A stretch of 55,463 bases of DNA, from the NCBI GenBank assembly GCA_039809465.1, contig JBDHVB010000003.1:1-55463 (forward strand). The letters are read 5' to 3'. The position numbers and the translations under genes were made by a program. This document shows, one piece after another, positions 2,525-55,463 of this stretch. Under the pieces are notes generated by a model that was not told the DNA's origin, made no database searches, and was given only the letters and a program-made list of their open reading frames with translations. The stretch's first letter is position 1. Each line of letters starts with the position of its first letter. The DNA comes from Myxococcota bacterium. GTDB lineage: Bacteria > Myxococcota > XYA12-FULL-58-9 > JALHOP01.

Positions 2525-3178
2525 ATGGGCTTCTTAGGCTTTGGCAAAAAGGCCAAACAACTCGATGAGTTCCAAGCCCTCATCGAGCAACATCTAGACG
2601 GGATGTTCCGTGTCGCGCTGCGTTATACGCGCGACAAGACGCTCGCCGAAGACTTGGTCCACGACACCGTCGTCCGCGCCCTGCGCTTCCAGGACAAGTT
2701 CGAGCGCGGCACCAACTTCAAGGCGTGGATCTACACGGTCCTCACCCATACGTTCATCCACCGCTACCGCCGGCAGAAGCGTGAGCGGGAGATCCTCGAA
2801 GGCGCCACTCAAGAAGACGTGGCGTCGCAGCTGCGCAGCGAGGCGTCGCGCGAGCTCGCCGCCCACCCCGAGGCGGCTTATGTCGAGCACATGCTCTCCG
2901 ACGACGTGGTGAAGGCGCTCGATTCGCTCCCCGAGGATTTCCGCAGCGTCGTGGTGCTCTGCGACCTCGAGGGTCTCGCTTACAAGGACATCGCCGACGC
3001 GGTCGACGTGCCCGTGGGCACCGTCATGAGCCGCCTCTATCGCGGACGCCGCCTGCTCGAGCAGAAGCTCGCGGGCCTCGCGGTGGAGCGCGGTATCATC
3101 AAGCCGAGCGCGGCGCAGGCCGAAGAGCAACAGCAAGTGCTCGACCTTCAAGCCTTCAAACGGCGTAAGAGCGGGTGA
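2525..3178 (+). CDS. rpoE: ECF RNA polymerase sigma factor (RpoE1-like)
   Basis: Region 2 AEDLVHDT..GTNFKAWIY and region 4 YKDIADAVDVPVGTVMSRLYRGR. Lies downstream of ald, as recalled for Myxococcus aldA-rpoE1. Confidence 0.93.
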   Translation: MGFLGFGKKAKQLDEFQALIEQHLDGMFRVALRYTRDKTLAEDLVHDTVVRALRFQDKFERGTNFKAWIYTVLTHTFIHRYRRQKREREILEGATQEDVASQLRSEASRELAAHPEAAYVEHMLSDDVVKALDSLPEDFRSVVVLCDLEGLAYKDIADAVDVPVGTVMSRLYRGRRLLEQKLAGLAVERGIIKPSAAQAEEQQQVLDLQAFKRRKSG

Positions 3179-3963
3179 CCTGCATGACCTCTTCGCCCAA
3201 CAATCGCATGCAATGCGACGAAGTCACCCGCGCCATTCCTTGGCTTCTCGACGAAGAGCTCGACAGTCAACAGGCGGCCGAGGTCGAAGCGCACCTGCAT
3301 GACTGCGCCGAATGCCGCGTCGTGCTGCAGCGCGAGGGCCAGCTGCGGCTCGCCGTGCGTCGCGCCGGTGAGCTCGAGGAGTGTCCCGACAGCCTGCGCA
3401 ACAAGGTGAGCAGCGCCTGCACGCGCGAGAAGCGCCGTCACCTCGCTTGGCAGCGCACCTGGCCAGCGATGTCGGCCGCGGCCATCCTCGCGTCGTTCAT
3501 CTGGCAGGGCACGACCGGCAATGCCGAGGCGCAAGACCTCGAGGAAGCCGCCGTCCGCCACGCCCGCAATCTCCCGATGGATGTCGTCGCTGGCGACCTC
3601 GGCAGGGTCGAGCAGTACTTCGACGGCAAGCTCCCGTTCGCGGTGCACGTGCCAGACATCGTGCGCAACCAGCCCGCGTCCATCCAGCTGGGTGGCCGCG
3701 TCATCGACTTGTCGAACCGCGAAGCAGCGTACGTCCGCTATGACCTACCGGGTGGCCGCATGTCGATGTTCGTCTACCCGGATCCCAACCCCCGCTTCTC
3801 GGAGGTCATCCCGGGCTACCAAATAGGGGACCGCCGCGTGCTCATTCGCCAGGTGCGCGGCTATACGACGGCGCAGTGGCACTCGCAGGGTCTTGTTTAC
3901 TCGGTGGTTACAGATCTGCCGGAACGCGAGCTTTCGACGGTGCTGACAGCCAATATGCGGTGA
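3175..3963 (+). CDS. Zinc-binding (ZAS, zf-HC2) anti-sigma factor
   Basis: HxxxCxxC motif (HLHDCAEC) and a central hydrophobic helix. Start overlaps the sigma stop (GTGA). Confidence 0.9.
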   Translation: MTCMTSSPNNRMQCDEVTRAIPWLLDEELDSQQAAEVEAHLHDCAECRVVLQREGQLRLAVRRAGELEECPDSLRNKVSSACTREKRRHLAWQRTWPAMSAAAILASFIWQGTTGNAEAQDLEEAAVRHARNLPMDVVAGDLGRVEQYFDGKLPFAVHVPDIVRNQPASIQLGGRVIDLSNREAAYVRYDLPGGRMSMFVYPDPNPRFSEVIPGYQIGDRRVLIRQVRGYTTAQWHSQGLVYSVVTDLPERELSTVLTANMR

Positions 3964-3975
3964 GAGGGTAGGGCT

Positions 3976-4026
3976 TATCGGCTATCGGCTATCGGCTATC
4001 GGCTATCGGCTATCGGCTATCGGCTA
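3976..4026. repeat. Perfect heptamer tandem repeat (TATCGGC)x7 plus TA
   Basis: Read directly, between two convergent stop codons. Confidence 0.97.
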
Positions 4027-4034
4027 ATAGTCCC

Positions 4035-6272
4035 CTAACCCCTCGTCCTCCCCTCCATCACCCTCGCCAACACCTGCCGCAACGCCATACTCCGCGTAAA
4101 AAACATCTTACGCATCTCCCTCCCCGGAATCCTCACCACCCTCGCCGGCGTCACCGCCCGCGCAGTCGTCTCCCGCGCCTTGCTCGAATACACCGCCGTC
4201 ATCTCACCGAAGAAATTATCCCGCGAATCCGCCGCGACCTGAGCCACCACACGCTCCCCGCGCTTGAGCTCCACGTCGCCTTGCACCAGCACGAAGAAAT
4301 CGTCGGCCATCTGGCCCTGATGCATGATGATCTCACCCGCCGGATACCTCTCCTCGATACCGCTCTTCGCCAGCAACGAGCGGTCCGAGATCGACAAGCT
4401 CGCAAACAACGCCGAGCCATCGAGCAGGGGACGCAGCATCCGCATCCGCTCGACACTATCATCGGCCCCCGTCTCCGCGATCGCGGTGTCGACGAGCTCG
4501 CCTGGCAAATCCATCACGATCATCGGCGTCATCGCCGTGATGGTGGCGCTAGCGCGGCCCGAGCCATCCACTCCCTCGAAGACGCCGAAAAAGTCCCCAG
4601 GACGCAGCACCCGCGCGTGACCCGTGCCCGGATGCTTGTCGTGCGACGAGGACGACGCAGCCCCAGCCACGATGACGGTCAAGGCATCGCGCACCCCTGA
4701 AGCTTCACCCGCGGTCGCGAGCGCGGTGCCCGCGGCGACCTCACGCAGCCGGCCACGGAAGAGCGCCTCCGCCAGGAAGGCCGGGCTGAAGAAGCCCATC
4801 TCGCCAAGGGCCGCGACGATGCGCTGCGGAGCGAGCGCCGCCGGTGAGAGACCCTCGATGAGGGTATAGACCTTACCTGGCGTCCCGATCTCGTGACCGA
4901 AGCCGCGCGTGTGCTCGTTGTCGGGGCAGTGATAATAGACCACGTGATTGGCGCTCTTCTGCCAATCCTTCGGGTGGCCGTGGATCAACGCCTCGCCGAC
5001 GTCGGCGAAGAAGAGGCTGCGCGGCACCTTCTCGTCGGGGACGAGCTGGCTCAAGTGATCCGCCATCGCGGTCGGGACGGCGCCGGCCTCGCGCATCTTG
5101 GCGAGCCCATCGAGGTGCAACGTGTCGCCGCTGACGACGATGCGGTGGGTGAGGCCCTGGTCGTCGCGCAAGCTCACGTCGACGCCGAGCGTCGGGATGG
5201 GGTGCACCGTGTAGAAGAAGTCGAAGGTGGCGCCGGCGATCTCGACGGCCTCGCCAGGCGTGACGCGGTGATAGTCGACGAGCTTCGCCACCTCCTCGGG
5301 GGTGCTGTCGAAGTAGTTCGCGAGCTTCACCAGGGCGCTGCGGTAGATGGCTTCGGTGGTGTAGACGCGCGGGCGGTGGCCCGTGGTGGTCAGCTCCACG
5401 AAGCTGTTCATGTGATCCTCGTGGCAGTGCGAGAGGATCAACGCGTCGATGTCCGCGAAAGCGACACCCTGGCTGTCGAGCAAGGTGCGGGTGCGCGCCG
5501 GGCCGTCGAAGAGCACGCCGCGGCCGTTCACCCAGAAGAGGAAGCCGGTGGTCGGACCCGTGAGGTCGAAGCCGCTGCGCACGCCGAGCGATTGGATACC
5601 GAAGCGCAGGGGTAGCAGGGCGTCCTGTGGCGTCGGCAGCGTGTTGAAGGGCGTGATGTCCGCCGGAACGGTCAGGTCGACGAGCTCTTTCTGGCCGCCC
5701 GCGGTCACCGTCACGCCCGCGCCGGCATCGCGTGTCAGCTCGAGCCGGCCATCGAAGAGGCTGACGCTGCCATCGGCCGCGAACGGCACGGTGCGCACCA
5801 TGTCCTCGACCTGCATGATGGCGCCACCACGCTTCACCGCCATGTGATTGCTGATGGCGGTGAGCATGCTCATGTCGGCTTCGCTCATCGCTGGCCGGCC
5901 TCGGTTGTCGCGGTAGCTCTCGAGCTCCGCCGCGCTCGGGCCGAGCAGGGTCATGCGTAGGGCGTCGCGCTCGCCCTTTTCACGGTGGCCGTCGGTGACC
6001 AGGACCATGCGCTCGTTCGCGAGGTCTGGCTTGAAGGCGGCGCCGTAGATGAACAAGAAGTCGTAGAGGAAGAACTCGGGCACGAACTGTGGCGTCGCAT
6101 GCGCCAACGTCTGCCGTGGCGCGACCAAGACGCGCGGGAAAGCGATCTTGTGGGTGTTGCAGTAGGCTTTGACCGCCTTGAAGGCGTCGGCTGGAGCGCC
6201 CAGCAGGACCGAGCCGTCATCGGTCACGACCAGGGCAACGCCGGGGTACGGACGATGAATGGCGAGGGGCAT
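4035..6272 (-). CDS. MBL-fold metallohydrolase with two C-terminal cyclic-nucleotide-binding domains (putative cNMP phosphodiesterase)
   Basis: SHCHEDH (HxHxDH), TVHPIPT, SGDT and two cNMP-like segments (PGDFFG..RASATITA; NFFGEM..RETTARA). ATG at 6272 chosen. Confidence 0.8.
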   Translation of the reverse strand: MPLAIHRPYPGVALVVTDDGSVLLGAPADAFKAVKAYCNTHKIAFPRVLVAPRQTLAHATPQFVPEFFLYDFLFIYGAAFKPDLANERMVLVTDGHREKGERDALRMTLLGPSAAELESYRDNRGRPAMSEADMSMLTAISNHMAVKRGGAIMQVEDMVRTVPFAADGSVSLFDGRLELTRDAGAGVTVTAGGQKELVDLTVPADITPFNTLPTPQDALLPLRFGIQSLGVRSGFDLTGPTTGFLFWVNGRGVLFDGPARTRTLLDSQGVAFADIDALILSHCHEDHMNSFVELTTTGHRPRVYTTEAIYRSALVKLANYFDSTPEEVAKLVDYHRVTPGEAVEIAGATFDFFYTVHPIPTLGVDVSLRDDQGLTHRIVVSGDTLHLDGLAKMREAGAVPTAMADHLSQLVPDEKVPRSLFFADVGEALIHGHPKDWQKSANHVVYYHCPDNEHTRGFGHEIGTPGKVYTLIEGLSPAALAPQRIVAALGEMGFFSPAFLAEALFRGRLREVAAGTALATAGEASGVRDALTVIVAGAASSSSHDKHPGTGHARVLRPGDFFGVFEGVDGSGRASATITAMTPMIVMDLPGELVDTAIAETGADDSVERMRMLRPLLDGSALFASLSISDRSLLAKSGIEERYPAGEIIMHQGQMADDFFVLVQGDVELKRGERVVAQVAADSRDNFFGEMTAVYSSKARETTARAVTPARVVRIPGREMRKMFFTRSMALRQVLARVMEGRTRG

Positions 6273-6388
6273 CGAACGAATTTGGTAGCAAGGATCGGTT
6301 GACGTAGCAAATTCACCTGACAAAGCACCCGCGGCAGGCCCATGCGGGTTTCCTTGCCCCATGGTCGGGTGGGCGACATAATCGCGCC

Positions 6389-7561
6389 ATGTCCAATGTT
6401 CTGATCATCGACAGCGAGCCCTCCGTCGCCCAGGCTCTCAAGGACGCTCTGTCGGCCCGCGGCGTCGACAGCCACATCACCGCGGACGGCACCGACGGCC
6501 TCGAATATGTCCGTTCCAACAAGCCCGACCTCATCATCCTCTGCGTCGAGCTGACGCGCGGCAGCGGCTATTCGGTCTGCAACAAGCTCAAGAAGGACGC
6601 CGGCATGGCGGCGATCCCGCTCATCCTGACGTCCAGTCAGGCCACCGAAGAGACCTTCGAGCAGCACAAGAAGCTGCGCACCCGCGCCGAAGCCTACGTG
6701 AAGAAGCCCTTCAGCCTGGACGCGATGATGGGCACCGTGGGCCAGTACGTGGAGCTGGGTGCCGTGGCGCCTGGTCACCAAGAGGTCGAGGTCTCCATCG
6801 ACGAGATGGAGGTCGAGATCCCGAACAACGCGCCGCAAGGCCGTCGGGCCGCGCCAACCACGCCGGCCGAGGACGAAGAGTTCCTCGACGTGAGCTTCGA
6901 GGGCGAAGACAGCAGCCCCAAGTCCGCGCCGCGCGATACCGCCGTGGGTCGCGAGCTCTTCTCGTCGGACGAGAGCGTGACGGCCGCCGAGCCGGCGCGT
7001 GTGCAGTCCGCTGCAGCGGTCGCCTCGAGCCCAGCTGTCGGCGCCAAGCTCTCCCCGCAAAGCGATGCCGAGCTCAATGGCCTCCGCAACGAGGTGAAGC
7101 AGCTGCGCGCCCGCGTGCAGAAGCTCGAGCAAGAGGCGCAGGAAAAGGAGGTCGCCTTCAACGACCGCCTGCTCGCGGAGAGCGCCCGTGCCCGCGACGC
7201 CCTCGAGTCGAAGAAGAAGCTCACGCAAGTCGAGCGCGAGATCGCCAAGTATCAGCAGGACGCCCAGAAGGCCCAAGCCGACGCCGAGACCGCCCGCGCG
7301 CAGATGCGCGACATGCAGGCCAAGGCAGACAGCATGGGCGGTGAGCGCAGCGAGCTCGCCGACAAGCTCGCGCAGGTCGTCGACAAGCTCAAGCAGGTCA
7401 CGAACGAGCGCGACCGCCTGCAGAGCGAGGTCACGAGCCTCCACGACGAGCAGAAGAACGCGAGCGCCGGTGTCGAGACCGCCGACCGGATGCGCGAGAA
7501 GGCCAAGAAGGCCGTCGACATCGCGATGCAGCTGCTGGAAGAGACGCGCCTGGTCAACTAG
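6389..7561 (+). CDS. frzS: FrzS-like pseudo-receiver plus coiled-coil motility protein
   Basis: Receiver domain lacking the phospho-acceptor Asp (DLIILCVEL), GYSVCNKLKKD, QHKKLRTRAEAY, acidic linker, long coiled coil ending KAVDIAMQLL. Synteny with ald-rpoE-anti-sigma. Confidence 0.72.
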   Translation: MSNVLIIDSEPSVAQALKDALSARGVDSHITADGTDGLEYVRSNKPDLIILCVELTRGSGYSVCNKLKKDAGMAAIPLILTSSQATEETFEQHKKLRTRAEAYVKKPFSLDAMMGTVGQYVELGAVAPGHQEVEVSIDEMEVEIPNNAPQGRRAAPTTPAEDEEFLDVSFEGEDSSPKSAPRDTAVGRELFSSDESVTAAEPARVQSAAAVASSPAVGAKLSPQSDAELNGLRNEVKQLRARVQKLEQEAQEKEVAFNDRLLAESARARDALESKKKLTQVEREIAKYQQDAQKAQADAETARAQMRDMQAKADSMGGERSELADKLAQVVDKLKQVTNERDRLQSEVTSLHDEQKNASAGVETADRMREKAKKAVDIAMQLLEETRLVN

Positions 7562-7670
7562 CGTTGGTGGGGACTCGTGTCGAGACCTGGCGCTGGCTTC
7601 GCACGCCGGTGCGGATTCCCATTTCCGCGAGCGTGCGGCGCGAGACCGTAAAGACGCGCACGTGGTGCTC

Positions 7671-7711
7671 TTGACGAGCGCGCCCGTCATGGTCACAACG
7701 ATATGACCATG
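7671..7711 (+). promoter_or_regulatory. TA operon promoter with palindromic operator
   Basis: TTGACG at 7671. Inverted repeat CATGGTCA (7688-7695)-N8-TGACCATG (7704-7711) overlaps the start codon. Confidence 0.6.
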
Positions 7712-35480: not shown

Positions 35481-35514
35481 TTCGCTCCGCTAACGCGGAC
35501 ATGAGGTAGAGACA

Positions 35515-35820
35515 ATGGCAGAAGCGTTGGGCATGATCGAAACCAAGGGATTCACGGCGATGGTCGAGGCCGCCGACGCCATGGTGAAGGCGGCGCGCGT
35601 CGAGCTCGTGGGTTACGAGCGCATCGGCGGCGGTTACGTGACCGCCATCGTGCGCGGTGACGTCGCGGCCGTCAAAGCGGCCACCGACGCCGGCGCCCGC
35701 GCCGCGGAGCGCGTCGGCGAGATGGTCAGCGTGCACGTCATCCCGCGTCCGCACGTCAACATCGACGAAGTCCTGCCGCTCGGCCGTAAGGGCAGCGAAG
35801 GCACCGGCGGCAAGAAGTAA
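35515..35820 (+). CDS. BMC-H hexameric shell protein
   Basis: [42 protein letters not shown]. Confidence 0.96.
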
Positions 35821-36152: not shown

Positions 36153-37687
36153 TGCCGTACATCAGTGAAGAGAAGCTCTCGGAGCTGGTCGAAAAAGTCG
36201 TCGAGCGCCTCGCGAACGAAGGCGGCCGCGAGACGCAGCTGCGCAAGACGCCCGCGAGCGTCAATCCGCCGTTCGGCTGTGACCCGCTGAAGCGGGGCGA
36301 GCGCACGCAGAGCGAGCAGGGCGCCGCGCGTGTCGGTGGCATGCAGGGCGCGGCGTCTGGTAGCGGCGCGCGCGGTGGCTTGGGCCGCGGCGTGTTCAGC
36401 GACCTCGACAGCGCCGTCAGCTCGGCACAGCGCGCCTTCCAGTCGTACCAGGGCATGGGCTTGAAGGGCCGCTTCGCCGTCATCGCGGCCATGCGCGAGC
36501 GGGCTCACCGTGAGGTCGAGAACATCTCGCGTATGGCGGTCGAGGAGACCGGCCTCGGCCGCTACGACCAGAAGCTCATCAAGAACCGCCTGGTCATCGA
36601 CAAGACGCCCGGTCCCGAGATCTTGGACCCCTGGGCCCAGACCGGTGACGACGGCTTGATGATCGAGGAGTACGCGCCCTTCGGCATCATCGGCGCCATC
36701 GCTCCCACCACGAACCCGACCGAGACCGTCATCTGCAACGCCATCGGCATGCTCGCCGCCGGCAACGCGGTCATCTTCAACGCGCATCCGTCCGCTAAAA
36801 AGGTCAGCGCCTACACCGTTCAGTTCTTGAACGAAGCCATCGTGAGCGCTGGCGGCCCGGAGAACCTCATCTGCTGCACCGCCGAGCCGACCATCGAGCT
36901 CGCGCAGCAGCTCATGCGCCACCCGGGCATCCGCTTGCTCGTCGTCACTGGCGGCCCTGGCGTCGTCAAGGAGGCCATGAACAGCGGCAAGAAGGTCATC
37001 GCCGCCGGCCCCGGTAATCCGCCGGCGGTGGTCGACGACAGCGCCGACCTCGAACAGGCCGCCGAAGGCCTCGTCAAGGGCATCTCACTCGACAACAACA
37101 TCGTCTGCACCGCGGAGAAGGAGATCATCGCGGTCGCCTCGATCGCCGACGAGCTCAAGCGCGCGATGGCGCGTTACGGCGCTTACGAGGTGAAGGGCGA
37201 CGAGCTCACGCGCCTCGAGAAGCTCATCGTCGTCGATGGCCATCCCAACAAGAAGTTCGTCGGCAAGGACGCCGCGGTCATCTTGAAGGAGATCGGCGTC
37301 AACGCGCCGCAGAACACGCTCATCGCTTACGCCGAGGTGCCGGAGAATCACCCGTTCGTGCAGCTCGAGCTGCTGACGCCGGTGACCGGCTTGGTGCGCG
37401 TGCGCAACGTCGACGACGCCATCGCCATGGCGGTTCGCTGCGAGCACGGTAACGGCCACACGGCCTGCATGTACTCGCGTAACATCGCCGCGCTGCACGC
37501 GATGGCGTGCGTCATCAACACGTCGATCTTCACCAAGAACGCGCCGACCTACGCGGGGCTGGGCCTCGGGGGCGAGGGCTACACCTCGTTCACCATCTCG
37601 AGCCCGACCGGCGAGGGGCTCACCAACGCCCGTCACTTCTCGCGCCGCCGCCGCTGCACCTTGAAGGACTACTTCCGCATCGTCTAA
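36152..37687 (+). CDS. CoA-acylating aldehyde dehydrogenase (EutE/PduP family) with N-terminal encapsulation peptide
   Basis: EETGLGR, PTTNPT, VTGG, AGPGNPP, NNIVCTAEKE (catalytic Cys), GGEGYTSFTI.SPTGEG. Amphipathic helix EEKLSELVEKVVERL. Confidence 0.94.
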   Translation: MPYISEEKLSELVEKVVERLANEGGRETQLRKTPASVNPPFGCDPLKRGERTQSEQGAARVGGMQGAASGSGARGGLGRGVFSDLDSAVSSAQRAFQSYQGMGLKGRFAVIAAMRERAHREVENISRMAVEETGLGRYDQKLIKNRLVIDKTPGPEILDPWAQTGDDGLMIEEYAPFGIIGAIAPTTNPTETVICNAIGMLAAGNAVIFNAHPSAKKVSAYTVQFLNEAIVSAGGPENLICCTAEPTIELAQQLMRHPGIRLLVVTGGPGVVKEAMNSGKKVIAAGPGNPPAVVDDSADLEQAAEGLVKGISLDNNIVCTAEKEIIAVASIADELKRAMARYGAYEVKGDELTRLEKLIVVDGHPNKKFVGKDAAVILKEIGVNAPQNTLIAYAEVPENHPFVQLELLTPVTGLVRVRNVDDAIAMAVRCEHGNGHTACMYSRNIAALHAMACVINTSIFTKNAPTYAGLGLGGEGYTSFTISSPTGEGLTNARHFSRRRRCTLKDYFRIV

Positions 37688-52582: not shown

Positions 52583-53056
52583 ATGTCGAGCTTCCCGATT
52601 ACGCCTGATGGCCTCGAGCGCATGAAAAGCGAGCTGCACAACCTCAAGACGCACGAGCGCCCGAAAATCAGCAAAGAGATCGGTGAAGCGCGCGAGCTTG
52701 GCGACCTGTCGGAGAACTTCGAGTACCACGCCGCTAAAGACCGCCAGGGTCTGGTCGAGGCGAAGATCCGCGACCTCGAGGACAAGGTGGCGCGCGCGCA
52801 GGTGATCGATCCCACGAAGCTGGGCGGTGAGCGCGTCGTGTTTGGCGCTACCGTGACCATCGAGGATGTCGAGGACGGCTCGGCCAAGCAGTACACCATC
52901 CTCGGCGAGTACGAGGCTGATGTAGAGAACGGGAAGATCAACGTCAATTCGCCATTGGCGCGCGCCCTCATCGGTAAGGAAGTCGGTGACGAGGTGAAGA
53001 TCCCCGGTAAGGGCGGGCAGCGTACCGTCGAGATCAGCGCGATCAGCTTCAAGTGA
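52583..53056 (+). CDS. greA: Transcription elongation factor GreA
   Basis: GDLSENFEYHAAK, VFGATV, SPLARALIGK. Confidence 0.96.
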   Translation: MSSFPITPDGLERMKSELHNLKTHERPKISKEIGEARELGDLSENFEYHAAKDRQGLVEAKIRDLEDKVARAQVIDPTKLGGERVVFGATVTIEDVEDGSAKQYTILGEYEADVENGKINVNSPLARALIGKEVGDEVKIPGKGGQRTVEISAISFK

Positions 53057-53060
53057 CGGC

Positions 53061-55463
53061 GTGAGTAACGAGAAGGCGACGGAGCTAGAGACGCTCCTCG
53101 CACCCTTGCGTAACCCGCTGACCTTCGCGGCTCGCAATGACTTCGAGAACGTCGAGCGCATCAAGGATCTGGAGAAGACCTTGCTGGCGGCCGCGCGGCG
53201 GTTGGTGGGGGTTGTGCGCGATGGCGGAGTTAGGGCGAGGCTTGGGAGTATCGTGGAGGTGTTGGAGGGGAAGGGGGGGCGGAAGGAGAAGGTGAGGAGG
53301 GTGTTGGAGGAGGTGGAGGCGATTGCGGAGGGGAGGGAGCCGATTGCCGATAGCCGAAGGCTGATAGCCGATGGCCGAGGACCGATAGCCGAGAGCCGAT
53401 TGCCGAAGGCCGATGACCGAAGGCCGATCGCCGATGGCCGAAAGCCGATTGCCGATAGCCGACCGCCGATCGCCGATGACCGAGCGCCGCCCGCCGAGCG
53501 CCGTGTCTCGAAGAAGCCCGAGTCCCTCTCGCTCAAGTCCGAGGTCCAGTACGTCAAGGGTATTGGGCCGGGGATTGCCAAGCTCTTGAACGACAAGGGC
53601 ATCGCGACCGTCGAGGATCTCATCCGCTTTCTTCCCCGCCGTTACGAGGATCGCTCCCTCCGGGGCAGCATCCGCGATCTGACTCCCGGGGAAGGTGCGA
53701 CGATTCAAGGGACCATCCTCGCCAAGTCCGCCAAGAATTTCCGCGGCCGCCGCTCGCTCGAGGTGGCGATTGGTGACGATACCGGGACGCTGCGGCTCAC
53801 TTGGTTCCGCTCGCTGGGGGCTGACTGGGCGGAGCGCTTCGCGAAGGGGAAGCGTGTCCAGGTCTCGGGGGTGGTCAAGGTGTTCCGTGGCCAGCTGCAG
53901 ATGGCGCATCCCGAGACACGTATCCTCGACGACGATGGCCCCGCTCCCGAGGCGCCCACCGAGCTCGTTCCTATTTACAGCGAGATCGAAGGCCTGCGCC
54001 CGCAGCAGCTGCGCCGCGTGCTCGACAACGTGTTGCCGCTCGCAAGCCACCTCGACGACTGCATCCCGACCGCCATCGCGGAGCGCCACCACCTCCCGGA
54101 TCTCGGCACCTCGGTGCAACTCCTGCACCGCCCGCCGCGCGCGACCGACCTCCAAGCGCTGCTCGACATGGCCACGCCCTGGCACAAGCGCCTCATCTAC
54201 GAGGAGCTCTTCCTGCTCCAGCTCGTCGTCCTGCAGCGCAAGGCCAAGGCCGCCGCCGAAGCGGGCAGGGCGGTGAGCTTCGGCGCGTCTCTCGCCGACG
54301 AAGCCGTGAAGCTCTTCCCGTTCGCGCTCACCAAGGCGCAGAGCCGCGTCCTGCGTGACATCGAGCACGACATGGGCAAAGCCGTGCCGATGCATCGCTT
54401 GCTGCAAGGCGACGTCGGCAGCGGTAAGACGGCCGTCGCCATGTCCGCTGCGGCGGCCATCGCTCATGCCGGCATGCAGGTCGCCATCATGGCCCCGACC
54501 GAGCTCCTCGCCGAGCAGCACGCCCGCACCGCGCTCGCCAGTCTCCCGAAGGCCGGCATCCGCGTCGATGTGCTCACGGGCTCGGTCACGGCGGCCGAGC
54601 GGCGGCGCATCCTCGGTGGTCTCGCGAGCGGCAACATCCAGGTCGTCGTCGGCACCCACGCGCTCATCCAGGCCGACGTGCGCTTCCACAAGCTCGCCCT
54701 CGGCATCATCGACGAGCAACACCGCTTTGGCGTACTGCAGCGCGCCCGCCTGCTCGAGCAGGGTCGCGAATCCCTCGGGGCCACGCCGCACGTGCTGGTC
54801 ATGACCGCGACGCCGATCCCACGCACGCTCGCGCTCACGGTGTACGGCGACCTCGACGTCTCGATCATCGACGAGCTGCCCCCGGGCCGCACGCCGGTGA
54901 AGACGGTGCTCTACCGTGAGAAGCAGCGCGACCAAGTGTACCGCCGCGTCCGCCACGCCGTGGAGCAGGGCCGCCAAGCCTACGTCGTGTTCCCGCTGGT
55001 CGAGGAGTCGGACAAGGAAGGCATGGCGGAGATCCGCGCGGTCACGAGCGAAGCCGAGGACCTCGCGAATGGCGCGCTCCACGGTCTGCGCATTGGCCTC
55101 TTGCACGGCCGGCTCGACGCCGCCGCCAAGGAGCAGGTGATGCGCGCCTTCCTCAACAAGCAGATCGACGTGCTGGTGGCGACCACCGTCGTCGAGGTCG
55201 GCATCGACGTCCCGAACGCGACGGTGATGGTCATCGAGCACGCCGAGCGCTTCGGTCTGTCGCAGCTCCATCAGCTCCGTGGCCGCGTCGGCCGTGGCGC
55301 GCACGCCAGCGAGTGCTTGCTGCTCACCTCGGGCACGTCGAGCGACGACGCGTGGCGCCGCTTGGGCGTCATGGAGGAGACGGCCGACGGCTTCAAGATC
55401 GCCGAAGCGGACCTCGAGATCCGCGGCCCCGGCGACTTCATCGGCACGCGCCAGTCCGGCTTG
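53061..55463 (+). CDS. recG: ATP-dependent DNA helicase RecG (3' end truncated by the window)
   Basis: Hand-translated from GTG at 53061: VKGIGP, FLPRRYEDR, RLLQGDVGSGKT, DEQHRFG, MTATPIPRT, QLHQLRGRVGRG, DLEIRGPG. Absent from the ORF track because there is no stop in the window. Confidence 0.95.
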   Translation, partial: MSNEKATELETLLAPLRNPLTFAARNDFENVERIKDLEKTLLAAARRLVGVVRDGGVRARLGSIVEVLEGKGGRKEKVRRVLEEVEAIAEGREPIADSRRLIADGRGPIAESRLPKADDRRPIADGRKPIADSRPPIADDRAPPAERRVSKKPESLSLKSEVQYVKGIGPGIAKLLNDKGIATVEDLIRFLPRRYEDRSLRGSIRDLTPGEGATIQGTILAKSAKNFRGRRSLEVAIGDDTGTLRLTWFRSLGADWAERFAKGKRVQVSGVVKVFRGQLQMAHPETRILDDDGPAPEAPTELVPIYSEIEGLRPQQLRRVLDNVLPLASHLDDCIPTAIAERHHLPDLGTSVQLLHRPPRATDLQALLDMATPWHKRLIYEELFLLQLVVLQRKAKAAAEAGRAVSFGASLADEAVKLFPFALTKAQSRVLRDIEHDMGKAVPMHRLLQGDVGSGKTAVAMSAAAAIAHAGMQVAIMAPTELLAEQHARTALASLPKAGIRVDVLTGSVTAAERRRILGGLASGNIQVVVGTHALIQADVRFHKLALGIIDEQHRFGVLQRARLLEQGRESLGATPHVLVMTATPIPRTLALTVYGDLDVSIIDELPPGRTPVKTVLYREKQRDQVYRRVRHAVEQGRQAYVVFPLVEESDKEGMAEIRAVTSEAEDLANGALHGLRIGLLHGRLDAAAKEQVMRAFLNKQIDVLVATTVVEVGIDVPNATVMVIEHAERFGLSQLHQLRGRVGRGAHASECLLLTSGTSSDDAWRRLGVMEETADGFKIAEADLEIRGPGDFIGTRQSGL
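53339..53485 (+). repeat. Degenerate heptamer array (consensus GCCGATA/GCCGANN) x21, in frame inside recG
   Basis: Read directly. It is the reverse complement of the unit at 3976-4026, and 147 nt equals 49 codons. Confidence 0.95.

Follow-up and report, generated by a model that had tools for sequence, protein, structure and literature searches.

Strand-specific cytosine depletion around GCCGANN heptamer arrays in a Myxococcota genome

The array locus and its cytosine-depleted flank

The window analyzed here, the whole 55,463-nt stretch from contig JBDHVB010000003.1 of a Myxococcota draft genome (GCA_039809465.1), contains a heptamer array located between two convergent genes. The features at this locus are the following.

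2525 to 3178, plus strand: ECF sigma factor gene with a 4-nt overlap with the anti-sigma gene (context only).
3175 to 3963, plus strand: anti-sigma gene with a zf-HC2 domain (Pfam), convergent with the MBL-cNMP gene.
3871 to 3960, plus strand: last 30 sense codons of the anti-sigma gene, with a mild drop in C-ending codons (C3) and more T and A endings.
3976 to 4026, minus strand: perfect heptamer array, (GCCGATA)x7.3, between the two convergent genes (Tandem Repeats Finder and our own array scan).
4027 to 4530, minus strand: full gradient of cytosine loss, about 500 nt on the 5' side of the array and strongest in 4027-4260 (substitutions and composition profile).
4035 to 6362, minus strand: MBL-cNMP gene, encoding 775 aa with a metallo-beta-lactamase fold plus two cyclic-nucleotide-binding domains; the cytosine-loss zone is at the 3' end of the gene.
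4038 to 4181, minus strand: core of the depleted zone, comprising the final 48 sense codons of this gene, of which none ends in C.

Tandem Repeats Finder reports a period of 7, 7.3 copies and 100% matches at 3976-4026, with the unit TATCGGC (GCCGATA when read on the minus strand). No intrinsic terminator, i.e., a G+C-rich hairpin followed by a T run, was identified at 3964-4034 between the convergent genes, and the sole terminator-like match (4221-4237) is inside the MBL-cNMP gene. Searches for a promoter at the array and for inverted repeats within 3900-4120 found none, and Rfam 15 gave a single chance match at the array locus (19.3 bits against a gathering score of 60). The MBL-cNMP protein, which has orthologs in 30 of 31 related genomes, matches the Pfam family cNMP_binding in two stretches (E 1.1e-22; 80.2 bits against a curated cut-off of 27.5), the best of which covers residues 671-755 of 775 and reaches into the cytosine-loss zone; Lactamase_B_2 was also matched. 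The start codon of this gene is uncertain, and our own gene caller prefers 6272.

A preliminary description of the window had stated that C-ending codons are missing from the final 48 sense codons of the MBL-cNMP gene. This is confirmed for 4038-4181, where 41 codons end in G, 7 in T and none in C or A, and the last C-ending codon of the gene is AGC at 4182-4184. The otherwise rare codons listed in that description are likewise present in the run, which contains AGG (7 times), TTG and TTT (twice each), ATT, AGT, ACT, CGT, GGT and GGG. Per 1000 codons in our 4,780 gene calls, AGG is used 1.65 times as compared to 49.7 for CGC, AGT 1.7 versus 22.1 for AGC, TTT 2.7 versus 30.3 for TTC, ATT 3.1 versus 40.1 for ATC, and GGG 9.5 versus 56.7 for GGC. 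With a genome-wide C3 of 0.519, the probability of a C3-free run of 48 codons is 6e-16 under independent and identical draws, and the run is the second longest of its kind among the 4,780 called genes. The count of only 10 G on the plus strand in 4031-4140 was also correct (C=56, skew -0.70), and 35 of 557,346 windows of 110 nt genome-wide are equally extreme. Across 4027-4260, with 111 C, 37 G and a skew of -0.50, the corresponding number is 71 of 552,347 windows.

Both the composition profile and the substitution counts demonstrate that the depletion fades with distance from the array, as had been proposed. The change had also been called largely synonymous, which is mostly the case, but several amino acids have been replaced (L to M, N to S, H to R, T to V, D to E, and E to G) and the final residues are also unlike those of the relatives. 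As for the milder version suggested for the 3' end of the anti-sigma gene, the composition agrees, with C3 in 4 of the last 30 codons versus 16 of the preceding 30 and 104 of the remaining 202. The codons named as examples are present but non-contiguous, and the private changes within 120 nt (C>N 5/25, G>N 6/38) are not clearly C-specific.

A second array is located in the same window, inside a RecG-like ORF.

53166 to 53338, plus strand: G-rich, C-poor zone 5' of the second array.
53339 to 53506, plus strand: degenerate GCCGANN array of about 24 units, in frame in the N-terminal extension of the RecG-like ORF.

This array is translated as P-I-A-D-x-R-x repeats and occurs in each of the four species of the genus. 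In the zone that precedes it, the skew over 110 nt peaks at +0.83, more extreme than anywhere else in the genome. Alignment with the relatives identifies it as conserved coding sequence that has been C-depleted stepwise, and most so in this genome.

Heptamer arrays and skewed flanks across the genome

In total, 84 GCCGANN arrays were identified by our own scan of the 5.6-Mb draft genome, which consists of 403 contigs. On both sides of an array, the strand that enters it in the 5' to 3' direction is rich in G and poor in C. On the 5' side, the mean skew over 120 nt is +0.37, with 51 of 81 measurable flanks above 0.3 and none below -0.3. On the 3' side of the same strand, the mean is -0.18, equal to +0.18 on the inward strand, with 20 of 75 flanks below -0.3 and none above 0.3. 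It takes about 300 nt on the 5' side and about 100 nt on the 3' side for the skew to decay. The loss of C from both sides of the repeat that had been suggested for the locus in the window is thus seen in the mean over arrays genome-wide, but the anti-sigma side is weak at this locus.

The last 50 nt before the arrays contain G at a frequency of.46, C at.17, A at.185 and T at.18, and non-coding flank positions have G.42, C.22 and T.20. The lost C has been replaced mainly by G, with almost no gain of T, non-coding flanks included; plain deamination of cytosines in single-stranded DNA (ssDNA) predicts T enrichment, unlike this net C to G outcome. All classes of 5' flanks display a 3-nt rather than a 7-nt periodicity. 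The GCCGA core is invariant among arrays that differ in the sixth and seventh bases, and 21 of the 25 intragenic arrays read as P-I/M-A/T-D/E-x-R-x repeats.

The expectation that other arrays should be skewed was borne out with equal polarity on both sides, and also in sister genomes, with values of +0.27 and -0.21 for the 13 arrays in G003 and +0.11 and -0.16 for the 11 arrays in G001. Apart from a few in a second genus (G009 and G014; about 50% G+C), the arrays are confined to a single genus; in the second genus, the flanks of the 4 arrays examined are mostly further repeat units and gave no usable skew estimate. A search of article texts for 14-mers of the array units returned only an unrelated match in sugar beet, and a search for heptanucleotide tandem repeats with GC skew in myxobacteria found nothing relevant.

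We compared the array flanks to several sets of control sites. The 2,209 gene 3' ends without an array have a mean skew of -0.02 and 0.05% of them have a skew of at least 0.5, as compared to a mean of +0.26 for the 32 gene ends with an array within 100 nt; equally strong C-free stretches are thus not common at gene ends where arrays are missing, and a gene-end effect independent of arrays is rejected. The convergent-skew index is -0.002 for 3,000 random sites and -0.008 for 183 other tandem repeats (TRF score of at least 60; 0.5% above 0.25), a comparison that tests skew and not the total rate. Since these other repeats are flat, a general repeat-induced skew is also rejected. Among 20 sites with the convergent type of pattern, 10 are near arrays, versus none of the 10 sites with the mirror-image pattern. 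Among the 54 most skewed loci, 30 have an array no more than 300 nt away, and 9 are equally close to a contig end.

Only 1-2 sites are strongly skewed but array-less. The clear case (contig C41, near 21115) lies between convergent genes with a 4-nt spacer, at a position where the relatives have neither skew nor array, and the second (contig C1, near 44976) contains two decayed units; our reading of these two sequences is that they may represent lost arrays. Unit purity is negatively correlated with skew (rho -0.24, p 0.03), and the arrays with little skew are mostly pure. Because array-less skew is rare, low-skew arrays are mostly pure and array-less orthologs are normal, as described below, we suggest that the array comes first and the skew later.

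The positions of the arrays relative to genes bear on a role for transcription. If RNA polymerase stalled at the array, R-loops behind it could expose the non-template sense strand of genes that run into the array, and this strand would then lose C. Such an explanation, which we consider unlikely, agrees with the location of most arrays at gene 3' ends: flanks facing a gene end make up 34/50 (5' side) and 32/50 (3' side) of the flanks of intergenic arrays with a neighboring gene, and 16 arrays are located between convergent genes, many with spacers of tens of bases. It also agrees with the higher skew of flanks facing a 3' end than of flanks facing a 5' end (0.38 versus 0.29 on the 5' side, 0.19 versus 0.10 on the 3' side), and with the intra-ORF arrays, of which 21 of 25 lie on the coding strand and whose upstream skew is the highest of all (0.46). 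However, the skew has the same sign where the inward strand is the template, as in the flanks that face a 5' end (0.29 and 0.10) and downstream of intra-ORF arrays (0.23). Furthermore, array orientation (0.37 versus 0.18) explains more of the asymmetry than gene orientation, and arrays in tandem gene pairs are found either way without preference (10 versus 12).

Alternatively, the skewed strands could be kept by selection as a two-way terminator or insulator with Rho-loading-like RNA, as an R-loop terminator or as a G-quadruplex, an idea that we find doubtful. A transcript crossing one of the many arrays between convergent genes would meet a C-rich, G-poor stretch, and the lack of an intrinsic terminator at the array in the window makes another mode of termination plausible. 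Yet the skew is also present at flanks facing 5' ends and within ORFs, positions at which termination would do harm, and the orthologous gene pairs in sister species do without the skewed zone. An explanation by rut sites only is rejected by the C-rich outward composition at these same 5'-facing and intra-ORF positions. G-quadruplex motifs (G3+N1-7 x4) were identified in 11 of 78 flanks as compared to 18.1 +/- 3.0 in shuffled sequences, which is not above composition and rejects this variant, and the observed to expected ratio of GGGG is 0.68 in flanks versus 0.24 in the genome, so that G-runs are less avoided near arrays. A hairpin with the array as its loop is likewise rejected, since the 5' and 3' flanks of one array pair no better with each other than with those of other arrays (mean duplex energy of -71.3 for 68 arrays versus -70.2 for non-cognate pairs; Mann-Whitney p=0.8).

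Substitutions relative to same-genus orthologs

The array is absent at the orthologous site in three genomes of the same genus, one of which (locus L002) keeps single GCCGAT motifs. The three array-less orthologs have C3 in 16-21 of the 48 codons, a skew near 0 and normal codon use; the bias at this locus is thus a lineage-specific change, and the view of the zone as repeat-linked and strand-specific is upheld by the orthologs, the controls and the arrays genome-wide. Within 4027-4530, there are 400 sites at which the three relatives agree, and 57 of these carry a private change, with the polarity set by parsimony with three relatives. No less than 48 of the changes are from C (22 C>T, 17 C>G and 9 C>A), versus 2 from G.

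These alignments also bear on the possibility that the G-rich sequence arrived with the array, as a mobile element or as decayed units, and was not mutated in place. Some array-proximal flanks do not align to the relatives, such as about 300 nt 5' of the array at position 20234 of contig C28, and array edges contain decayed units such as GGCGATT; the shared GCCGA core speaks for the arrays themselves having one origin or one generating mechanism in common. Against this, the flanks at the locus studied here and at the RecG-like site align base by base with conserved coding sequence, the differences are point substitutions that mostly keep the protein, the 5' flanks have the 3-nt and not the 7-nt periodicity, and no inverted repeats flank the array. 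Judging from the alignments, arrival with the array is already refuted at this locus, and for the arrays in general we regard it as very improbable. A MITE- or REP-like mobile element is rejected by the lack of inverted repeats and of cognate complementarity, and by the identity of the flank as orthologous coding sequence.

It could be argued that the zone is a sequencing or assembly artefact near a repeat, given that the draft is in 403 contigs that often end in arrays. We consider this extremely improbable. Contigs assembled from two further public runs, belonging to two separate studies, contain the cytosine-loss zone with 1-3 differences, and it is therefore not an artefact of assembly; the changes respect codon position, with C loss of 0.52 at third positions versus 0.12 at first and second positions; and the pattern recurs in three independently assembled sister genomes. 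In a comparison of public contigs of four runs to 2800-5800, which has very low power, there was 1 difference in 226 nt of the zone versus 8 in 470 nt further in, which is no enrichment of strain-level differences in the zone. The public contigs break at the array, and in one of them the array is 47 nt longer. Reads piled on 3911-4112 are cross-matches from other arrays.

The substitution spectrum was taken from 30 flank alignments at 17 array sites. These sites were chosen on contigs with strongly skewed arrays, with every array per stretch kept, and thus describe the changes rather than prove the association. At the 17 sites, the loss per ancestral C is 0.20-0.32 within 100 nt of the array and 0.12 at 450-700 nt, i.e., about 2-2.5-fold higher near arrays, whereas G>N stays at 0.05-0.10 across distances. 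Neither C gain nor G loss changes significantly near the arrays, and changes of A and T display no significant or consistent rise. The spectrum of C changes has the same shape near arrays (C>A 23, C>G 56, C>T 55) and far from them (12, 49 and 40), with no distinctive mutational signature in the near versus far spectra of these sites. A deaminase of the APOBEC/AID or bacterial toxin type is rejected as the source, since C loss has no preferred 5' neighbor (A.25, C.16, G.19, T.23) and C>T, with 55 of 134 near-array C changes and a share equal to that at far positions, is not the main product.

The ratio of C gain near to far is 0.82 for 5' flanks and 1.21 for 3' flanks. A fixation-bias model fitted to the excess of C loss predicts ratios of 0.49 and 0.27, respectively, and is rejected (p=0.002 and p=3.5e-14). 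Because C loss rises without a significant change in C gain, extra mutational input fits these sequence comparisons better than fixation bias. The same result counts against a selected function of the skewed strands, as C gains are not lowered in the manner that fixation bias predicts. At third positions of the 5' flanks, on the other hand, C gains are somewhat lower than expected under pure input (16 observed versus 27.4 expected, ratio 0.58, p=0.013), which would favor a selected function, and fixation bias may contribute in part at these positions.

A mutational reading and its relation to known systems

With moderate confidence, we interpret the zone as a mutational footprint of the heptamer array. 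The GCCGANN array would serve as the start site of a recurring DNA transaction that spreads about 100-500 nt outward on both sides, candidates being a nick or break followed by 5' to 3' resection, or outward repair or gap-filling synthesis. The strand with its 3' end pointing into the array would be left single-stranded or used as a template, and its cytosines would change to T, G or A two to three times as often as in the background. The changes let through by purifying selection would be mostly at third positions, and the preference of the genome for G- or C-ending codons would leave G where this is synonymous and T elsewhere; combined with C loss, this preference would account for the AGG, TTG, GGG, TTT, ATT and AGT codons and for the G-rich sense strand. 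The process appears to sense the orientation of the array, because the effect is about twice as strong 5' of the GCCGANN strand.

We infer ssDNA, a nick or break, and a polymerase as the agents. The preliminary description had proposed recurrent nicking or breakage with mutation of exposed ssDNA cytosines, or error-prone repair synthesis, at the repeat. The comparison of C loss and C gain favors the extra mutational input that this entails, but deamination of ssDNA cytosines is an ill-fitting source, with G as the net product and no deaminase-like context. Replication of bacterial chromosomes also leaves a GC skew, with G over C on the strand thought to be longer single-stranded, and each array resembles a miniature terminus at which the skew switches from plus to minus. 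The array skew differs in that it extends over about 100-500 nt rather than megabases, reaches 0.4-0.8 against a background of about 0.03 here, follows array orientation and has no clear excess of T over A. Chromosome replication is rejected as its cause: the skew is 0.26 versus 0.27 when split by fork direction, as inferred only from weak local skew in this fragmented draft, unlike the 0.37 versus 0.18 for array orientation, which agrees with the sign of the background skew (absolute value 0.027) in 30 of 74 cases.

Immunoglobulin class-switch regions and the GC-skewed, R-loop-forming ends of vertebrate genes combine tandem repeats with a G-rich non-template strand and cytosines in ssDNA as targets. 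Both of these rely on transcription and a dedicated deaminase, unlike the arrays, which are without deaminase context and skewed also where the inward strand is the template. Dispersed heptamer arrays (STRR) are known from cyanobacteria. Tandem repeats that create disordered protein regions are described for Borg elements (PMC9879509). Like both of these, the GCCGANN arrays form a genome-wide family of short repeats that are intergenic as well as in frame inside genes, but the unit and the host are different, and neither system is known to have a strand-specific gradient of C loss in its flanks.

In yeast and in cancer genomes, ssDNA at resected double-strand breaks accumulates strand-coordinated mutation clusters with cytosine as the main target, according to three studies (PMC6786661, PMC3521656, PMC3799438). 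The meta-profile of the 84 arrays and the 17 substitution sites are similar in that changes along one strand are C-type to one side of a central point and G-type to the other, the geometry expected if 3'-ended tails persist on both sides of a break. Break clusters are, however, single events on one molecule in experiments or tumours, whereas the array flanks show a fixed evolutionary gradient filtered by purifying selection, in a bacterial host, without a deaminase motif, with G and not T as the net product, tied to one heptamer family and extending over hundreds of bases rather than kilobases. Mutagenesis at a distance from repeats has been attributed to error-prone polymerases recruited after stalling at the repeat (PMC3114760, PMC4928981). 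The array effect differs in being specific for C and for one strand and in switching sign across the repeat. It also differs from repeat-induced mutagenesis generally in its specificity for GCCGANN, with the 183 other tandem repeats being unskewed. According to a review (PMC3901139), ImuB and ImuC are required for G:C>C:G transversions in Caulobacter, and this type of bacterial gap-filling polymerase may serve as a precedent with a fitting spectrum.

The invariant core, the dependence of the effect on orientation and the confinement of the arrays to one genus and a few members in a second leave room for a dedicated, sequence-specific system. A strand-specific nickase, recombinase or templated polymerase could recognize the GCCGA core, seed and maintain the arrays, and direct strand-specific C>G/T/A mutagenesis to a few hundred bases of their flanks. 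We put this forward only as a speculative possibility. If true, it would be a natural, localized and orientation-aware mutator that rewrites gene ends and builds new disordered linkers, namely PIADGR-type repeats with G/E/R-rich and P/S/T-rich shoulders.

Whatever its agents, the array process alters codon usage as well as amino-acid composition, and conserved genes are affected even at their C-termini; it also accompanies in-frame repeat insertions in a RecG-like helicase and in a polyketide or non-ribosomal peptide synthase. The resulting islands of extreme GC skew could pass for foreign DNA, origins or termini. Local heterogeneity in mutation rate is usually small and hard to see in bacteria, and the genome studied here offers a strong signal in about 84 natural replicates, with a central repeat, a switch in sign, a decay length of about 100-150 nt and orientation dependence. 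If mutational, this signal would record which strand is exposed or resynthesized around a fragile repeat, and mutation at a distance from repeats would therefore be testable in bacteria with simple reporters.

Cytosine loss beside the array at the MBL-cNMP gene

The draft genome comprises 403 contigs (5.6 Mb, 66.6% G+C), of which contig C3 is the window. Two convergent genes of this contig are separated by a spacer of 71 nt, which holds a heptamer array:

2525..3178, +: ECF sigma gene, upstream of the anti-sigma gene
3175..3963, +: zf-HC2 anti-sigma gene, converging on the MBL-cNMP gene
3976-4026, −: heptamer array of 7.3 perfect units, reading GCCGATA (TATCGGC on +)
4035..6362, −: MBL-cNMP gene, 775 aa, with a metallo-beta-lactamase fold and two cNMP-binding domains

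The central observation of the preliminary description, a cytosine-depleted 3' end of the MBL-cNMP gene, is confirmed. None of the last 48 sense codons (4038-4181) ends in C (41 end in G and 7 in T), and the final C-ending codon is AGC at 4182-4184, as read on the − strand. Overall, C at third codon positions amounts to 0.519 in the 4,780 called genes, among which this C-free run ranks as the second longest. The run contains AGG seven times, TTG and TTT twice each, and ATT, AGT, ACT, CGT, GGT and GGG, among them the rare codons described from the zone, and in the same gene set AGG is used 1.65 times per 1000 codons as compared to 49.7 for CGC, ATT 3.1 times as compared to 40.1 for ATC, and TTT 2.7 times as compared to 30.3 for TTC. 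The + strand contains 10 G, as originally counted, and 56 C in 4031-4140, and only 35 of the 557,346 windows of 110 nt genome-wide are equally skewed. The milder version claimed for the anti-sigma gene holds for its composition, with 4 of the last 30 codons ending in C versus 16 of 30 and 104 of 202 farther upstream, but its private substitutions are not clearly C-specific.

Orthologs of the MBL-cNMP gene were identified in 30 of 31 related genomes. No array is present at this site in any of the three same-genus genomes (82-84% identity in the C-terminal part), two of which retain the convergent anti-sigma gene. Contrary to the outcome named beforehand as refuting the link to the repeat, these array-less orthologs lack the codon bias (21, 18 and 16 C-ending codons in the last 48; skew of G over C from -0.03 to +0.04), and 14 farther orthologs are likewise unskewed (-0.22 to +0.15). 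In a four-way alignment restricted to the sites where the three relatives agree (400 in the last 497 nt), 57 changes private to this genome were recorded. Of these, 48 were from C, and G, A and T were the starting base in 2, 4 and 3, respectively. The changes from C comprised 22 C>T, 17 C>G and 9 C>A. Private changes affected 20% of the sites in the last 147 nt versus 6.5% at 1,800-2,300 nt, while the other three lineages showed balanced changes of 3-8% in the same alignment. An assembly artefact is excluded, since the changes respect codon position, the sequences of 4032-4257 and 4034-4992 recur, with 1 and 3 differences, in assembly contigs of two further public runs that belong to two separate studies, and a like pattern is seen in the sister genomes.

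The array at 3976-4026 is about 47 nt (6-7 units) longer in one assembly contig from the public run X1, which suggests that it differs in length among strains. A distant ortholog (L009, genome G015) has a different repeat at the matching position, a tandem repeat of GAGCCACC-type units just 3' of the stop. Elsewhere in the window, an ORF of 490 aa without Pfam match (6224..7696, −) overlaps an ORF of 390 aa on the opposite strand (6389..7561, +), which is preferred by the codon-usage caller, and the A-over-T skew is unusually high, up to +0.5, in 7100-7500.

Arrays and flank skew across the genome

Scanning the whole draft genome for period-7 runs with a GCCGA core identified 84 GCCGANN arrays; the true number is probably higher because many arrays sit at contig ends. 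With every array oriented to read GCCGANN, the 5' flank is G-rich and C-poor, with a skew of +0.46 in the nearest 50 nt, followed by +0.33, +0.23, +0.15 and +0.13 per 50-nt bin and a level of about 0.05 past 350 nt. The 3' flank is rich in C, with -0.24, -0.15 and -0.06 in successive bins and then about 0. Among the measurable flanks, 51 of 81 on the 5' side exceed +0.3 and none falls below -0.3, and 20 of 75 on the 3' side fall below -0.3 and none exceeds +0.3. Thus, the suggestion that C is lost from both sides extends to the profile of all 84 arrays, in that the strand running 5' to 3' into the array (the inward strand) is C-poor at both flanks. Read off the 50-nt bins, an e-fold decay takes about 100-150 nt 5' of the array and about 70 nt 3' of it. 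The main replacement for the lost C is G: the composition near arrays is G.46, C.17, A.185 and T.18, compared with about.34,.32,.165 and.17 in the background, and flank positions outside called genes have.42,.22,.17 and.20, against a non-coding background of.315,.314,.186 and.186.

Strongly skewed gene ends are not common away from arrays. At the 3' ends of 2,209 genes of at least 900 nt without a nearby array, the skew over the final 120 nt is -0.02 +/- 0.12, and 0.05% of them attain 0.5. The 32 genes whose stop lies within 100 nt of an array have a mean skew of +0.26, which fades by 200-300 nt. The convergent-skew index was -0.008 for other tandem repeats (n=183) and -0.002 for random sites (n=3,000). 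An absolute skew of at least 0.55 in 110 nt was found at 54 loci. A detected array lies no more than 300 nt away from 30 of these, and a contig end from another 9; several of the 15 left over are degenerate arrays missed by the scan. Of 20 sites with the convergent type of pattern, 10 are near arrays, and the 10 sites with the mirror pattern, in which a C-rich stretch precedes a G-rich one, all lie away from arrays.

The 59 intergenic arrays mostly adjoin gene 3' ends; 16 lie between convergent, 22 between tandem (in either orientation) and 3 between divergent genes. Another 25 are located within called ORFs, on the coding strand in 21, where they translate in frame to seven-residue repeats of the type P-I/M-A/T-D/E-G/S/D-R-x, with shoulders rich in G/E/R/V on the N-terminal side and in P/S/T/A on the C-terminal side. 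The second array in the window is of this kind:

52583..53056: greA
53061-55463, +: RecG-like ORF, with an N-terminal extension of about 150 residues that begins directly after greA
53339-53506, +: array within this extension, encoding in-frame P-I-A-D-x-R-x repeats

The extension and its array are kept in all four species of the genus, and the 5' flank consists of conserved coding sequence with a progressive depletion of C, strongest in this genome and weakest in the sister G001. On contig C1 (33883-40611, −), a synthase-like ORF of 2,243 aa, of polyketide or non-ribosomal peptide type, has two arrays (35482-35607 and 37482-37558), one on the coding strand and one opposite. A ketosynthase-like motif was read from the translation beside one of them, and the arrays look like occupants of interdomain linkers.

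Skew on the 5' side is 0.38 where the array faces a gene 3' end, 0.29 where it faces a 5' end and 0.46 inside ORFs, and the corresponding 3'-side values are 0.19, 0.10 and 0.23. Since the sign is equal in every context, gene direction modulates the effect without setting its sign, and array orientation (0.37 on the 5' side versus 0.18 on the 3' side) outweighs gene direction. Splitting by inferred replication direction had no effect (0.26 versus 0.27). That the skew keeps its sign inside ORFs and at gene 5' ends is difficult to reconcile with a role as terminator or insulator. No intrinsic terminator, promoter or inverted repeat was found at 3976-4026 and no Rfam family was matched; the flanks lack specific complementarity, and G4 motifs are not enriched beyond composition.

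Substitutions in related genomes and order of events

Arrays of at least five GCCGANN units are carried by each of the four genomes of the genus and by two genomes from a second genus; none was found in the other 25 relatives searched. Sister arrays have the same polarity, with skews in the nearest 100 nt of +0.27 and -0.21 in G003 (13 arrays) and +0.11 and -0.16 in G001 (11 arrays). At two loci of the second genus (L123 and L126 in G014, about 50% G+C), (G/A)CCGAT(G/A) heptamer runs and a repeat unit of about 75 nt, which has a T/A-rich, hairpin-like core, follow each other in alternation, a composite repeat not seen in the window's genome.

We aligned 17 array sites of this genome to the syntenic regions of the three sisters, which yielded 30 flank alignments. 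Because the contig stretches were picked for strongly skewed arrays (all arrays therein were kept, weakly skewed ones included), the alignments characterise the changes and are no proof of the association.

Table. Changes private to this genome in 5' flanks by distance from the array (C>N per ancestral C; G>N per ancestral G)
0-50 nt: C>N.20; G>N.067
50-100 nt: C>N.32; G>N.061
100-200 nt: C>N.18; G>N.054
200-300 nt: C>N.18; G>N.10
300-450 nt: C>N.14; G>N.073
450-700 nt: C>N.12; G>N.086

On the inward strand of the 3' flanks, C>N was.25,.17,.16,.11,.09 and.07 outward from the array, with G>N at about.10-.13. Array presence varies between species at these sites: sisters that carry the array show a weaker bias of the same kind (C>N.11-.13 versus G>N.02-.075 within 300 nt), and array-less sisters show no C-loss bias.

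Low-skew arrays exist and are mostly pure, such as those on contigs C29 (12 perfect units; +0.10) and C36 (13 units; +0.08); these are presumably young. Skew correlates negatively with unit purity (rho -0.24, p 0.03), and arrays unique to this genome are already strongly skewed on the 5' side. Strong two-sided skew in the absence of an array is rare, with one clean case on C41 near 21115 and a second on C1 near 44976, where two decayed units are left. On C41 (20950-21300), the genes converge 4 nt apart and both sense-strand 3' ends are strongly G-rich (+0.65 and -0.64); no array is present at this locus or at its counterpart in the three sisters, all unskewed, and the locus may be the footprint of a lost array. 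Our reading is that the array precedes the skew and that the skew is able to outlast the array.

Mutational input, fixation and mechanism

Loss of C falls mainly on third codon positions (0.52 near versus 0.23 far from arrays) and is raised at second positions as well (0.12 versus 0.04). Loss of G does not change by codon position, and no 5'-neighbour preference of C loss was seen. Selection or biased conversion against C should cut C gains as much as C losses rise. We fitted this fixation-bias model to the hit-corrected C-loss ratio.

Table. C gains near arrays, observed and expected
5' flanks, all sites: near/far ratio 0.82 observed, 0.49 under fixation bias; 37 gains versus 22.0 by fixation bias (P=0.002) and 45.2 by pure extra input (P=0.12)
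3' flanks, all sites: ratio 1.21 observed, 0.27 under fixation bias; 39 gains versus 8.6 by fixation bias (P=3.5e-14) and 32.1 by pure extra input (P=0.9)
5' flanks, third codon positions: ratio 0.58 observed, 0.26 under fixation bias; 16 gains versus 7.3 by fixation bias (P=0.003) and 27.4 by pure extra input (P=0.013)

From the third-position figures, some fixation bias may contribute. On balance, these sequence comparisons speak for additional mutational input that hits C on one strand.

The excess substitutions are repeat-centred, orientation-aware, strand-specific and C-specific. Events would start in the array, and the strand with its 3' end toward the array would be left single-stranded or serve as template for outward resynthesis. 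Nicking of either strand would suffice for this, as would a break, given subsequent 5' to 3' resection. The stronger 5' side could arise if one array strand were nicked, or folded into a structure, in preference to the other. The flank geometry matches the strand-coordinated C/G switch described at resected yeast breaks (PMC6786661), and cytosine is described as the main target in yeast single-stranded DNA (PMC3799438). The spectrum does not fit simple deamination, since G accumulates instead of T. Two explanations of the G outcome remain, which are non-exclusive: a strong genomic G/C preference converts the product, or the process itself makes C>G. In Caulobacter, ImuB and ImuC are needed for G:C>C:G transversions, according to a review (PMC3901139). 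A dedicated array-making, mutagenic system behind both the arrays and the flank mutation seems unlikely.

Dispersed heptamer (STRR) arrays occur in cyanobacteria, and the arrays studied here resemble them. They are also reminiscent of the Borg tandem repeats described as creating disordered protein regions (PMC9879509). Mutagenesis near repeats is of a kind already described (PMC3114760, PMC4928981), as is mutational strand asymmetry, and the closest geometric analogues are replication GC skew and strand-coordinated clusters in single-stranded DNA (PMC6786661, PMC3799438). In a literature search that covered few subscription journals, no dispersed heptamer family was found to be described whose flanks show a gradient of cytosine loss that switches sign. 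The underlying phenomena are known, and what we rate as new is a sign-switching cytosine-loss gradient that is tied to a dispersed heptamer family.
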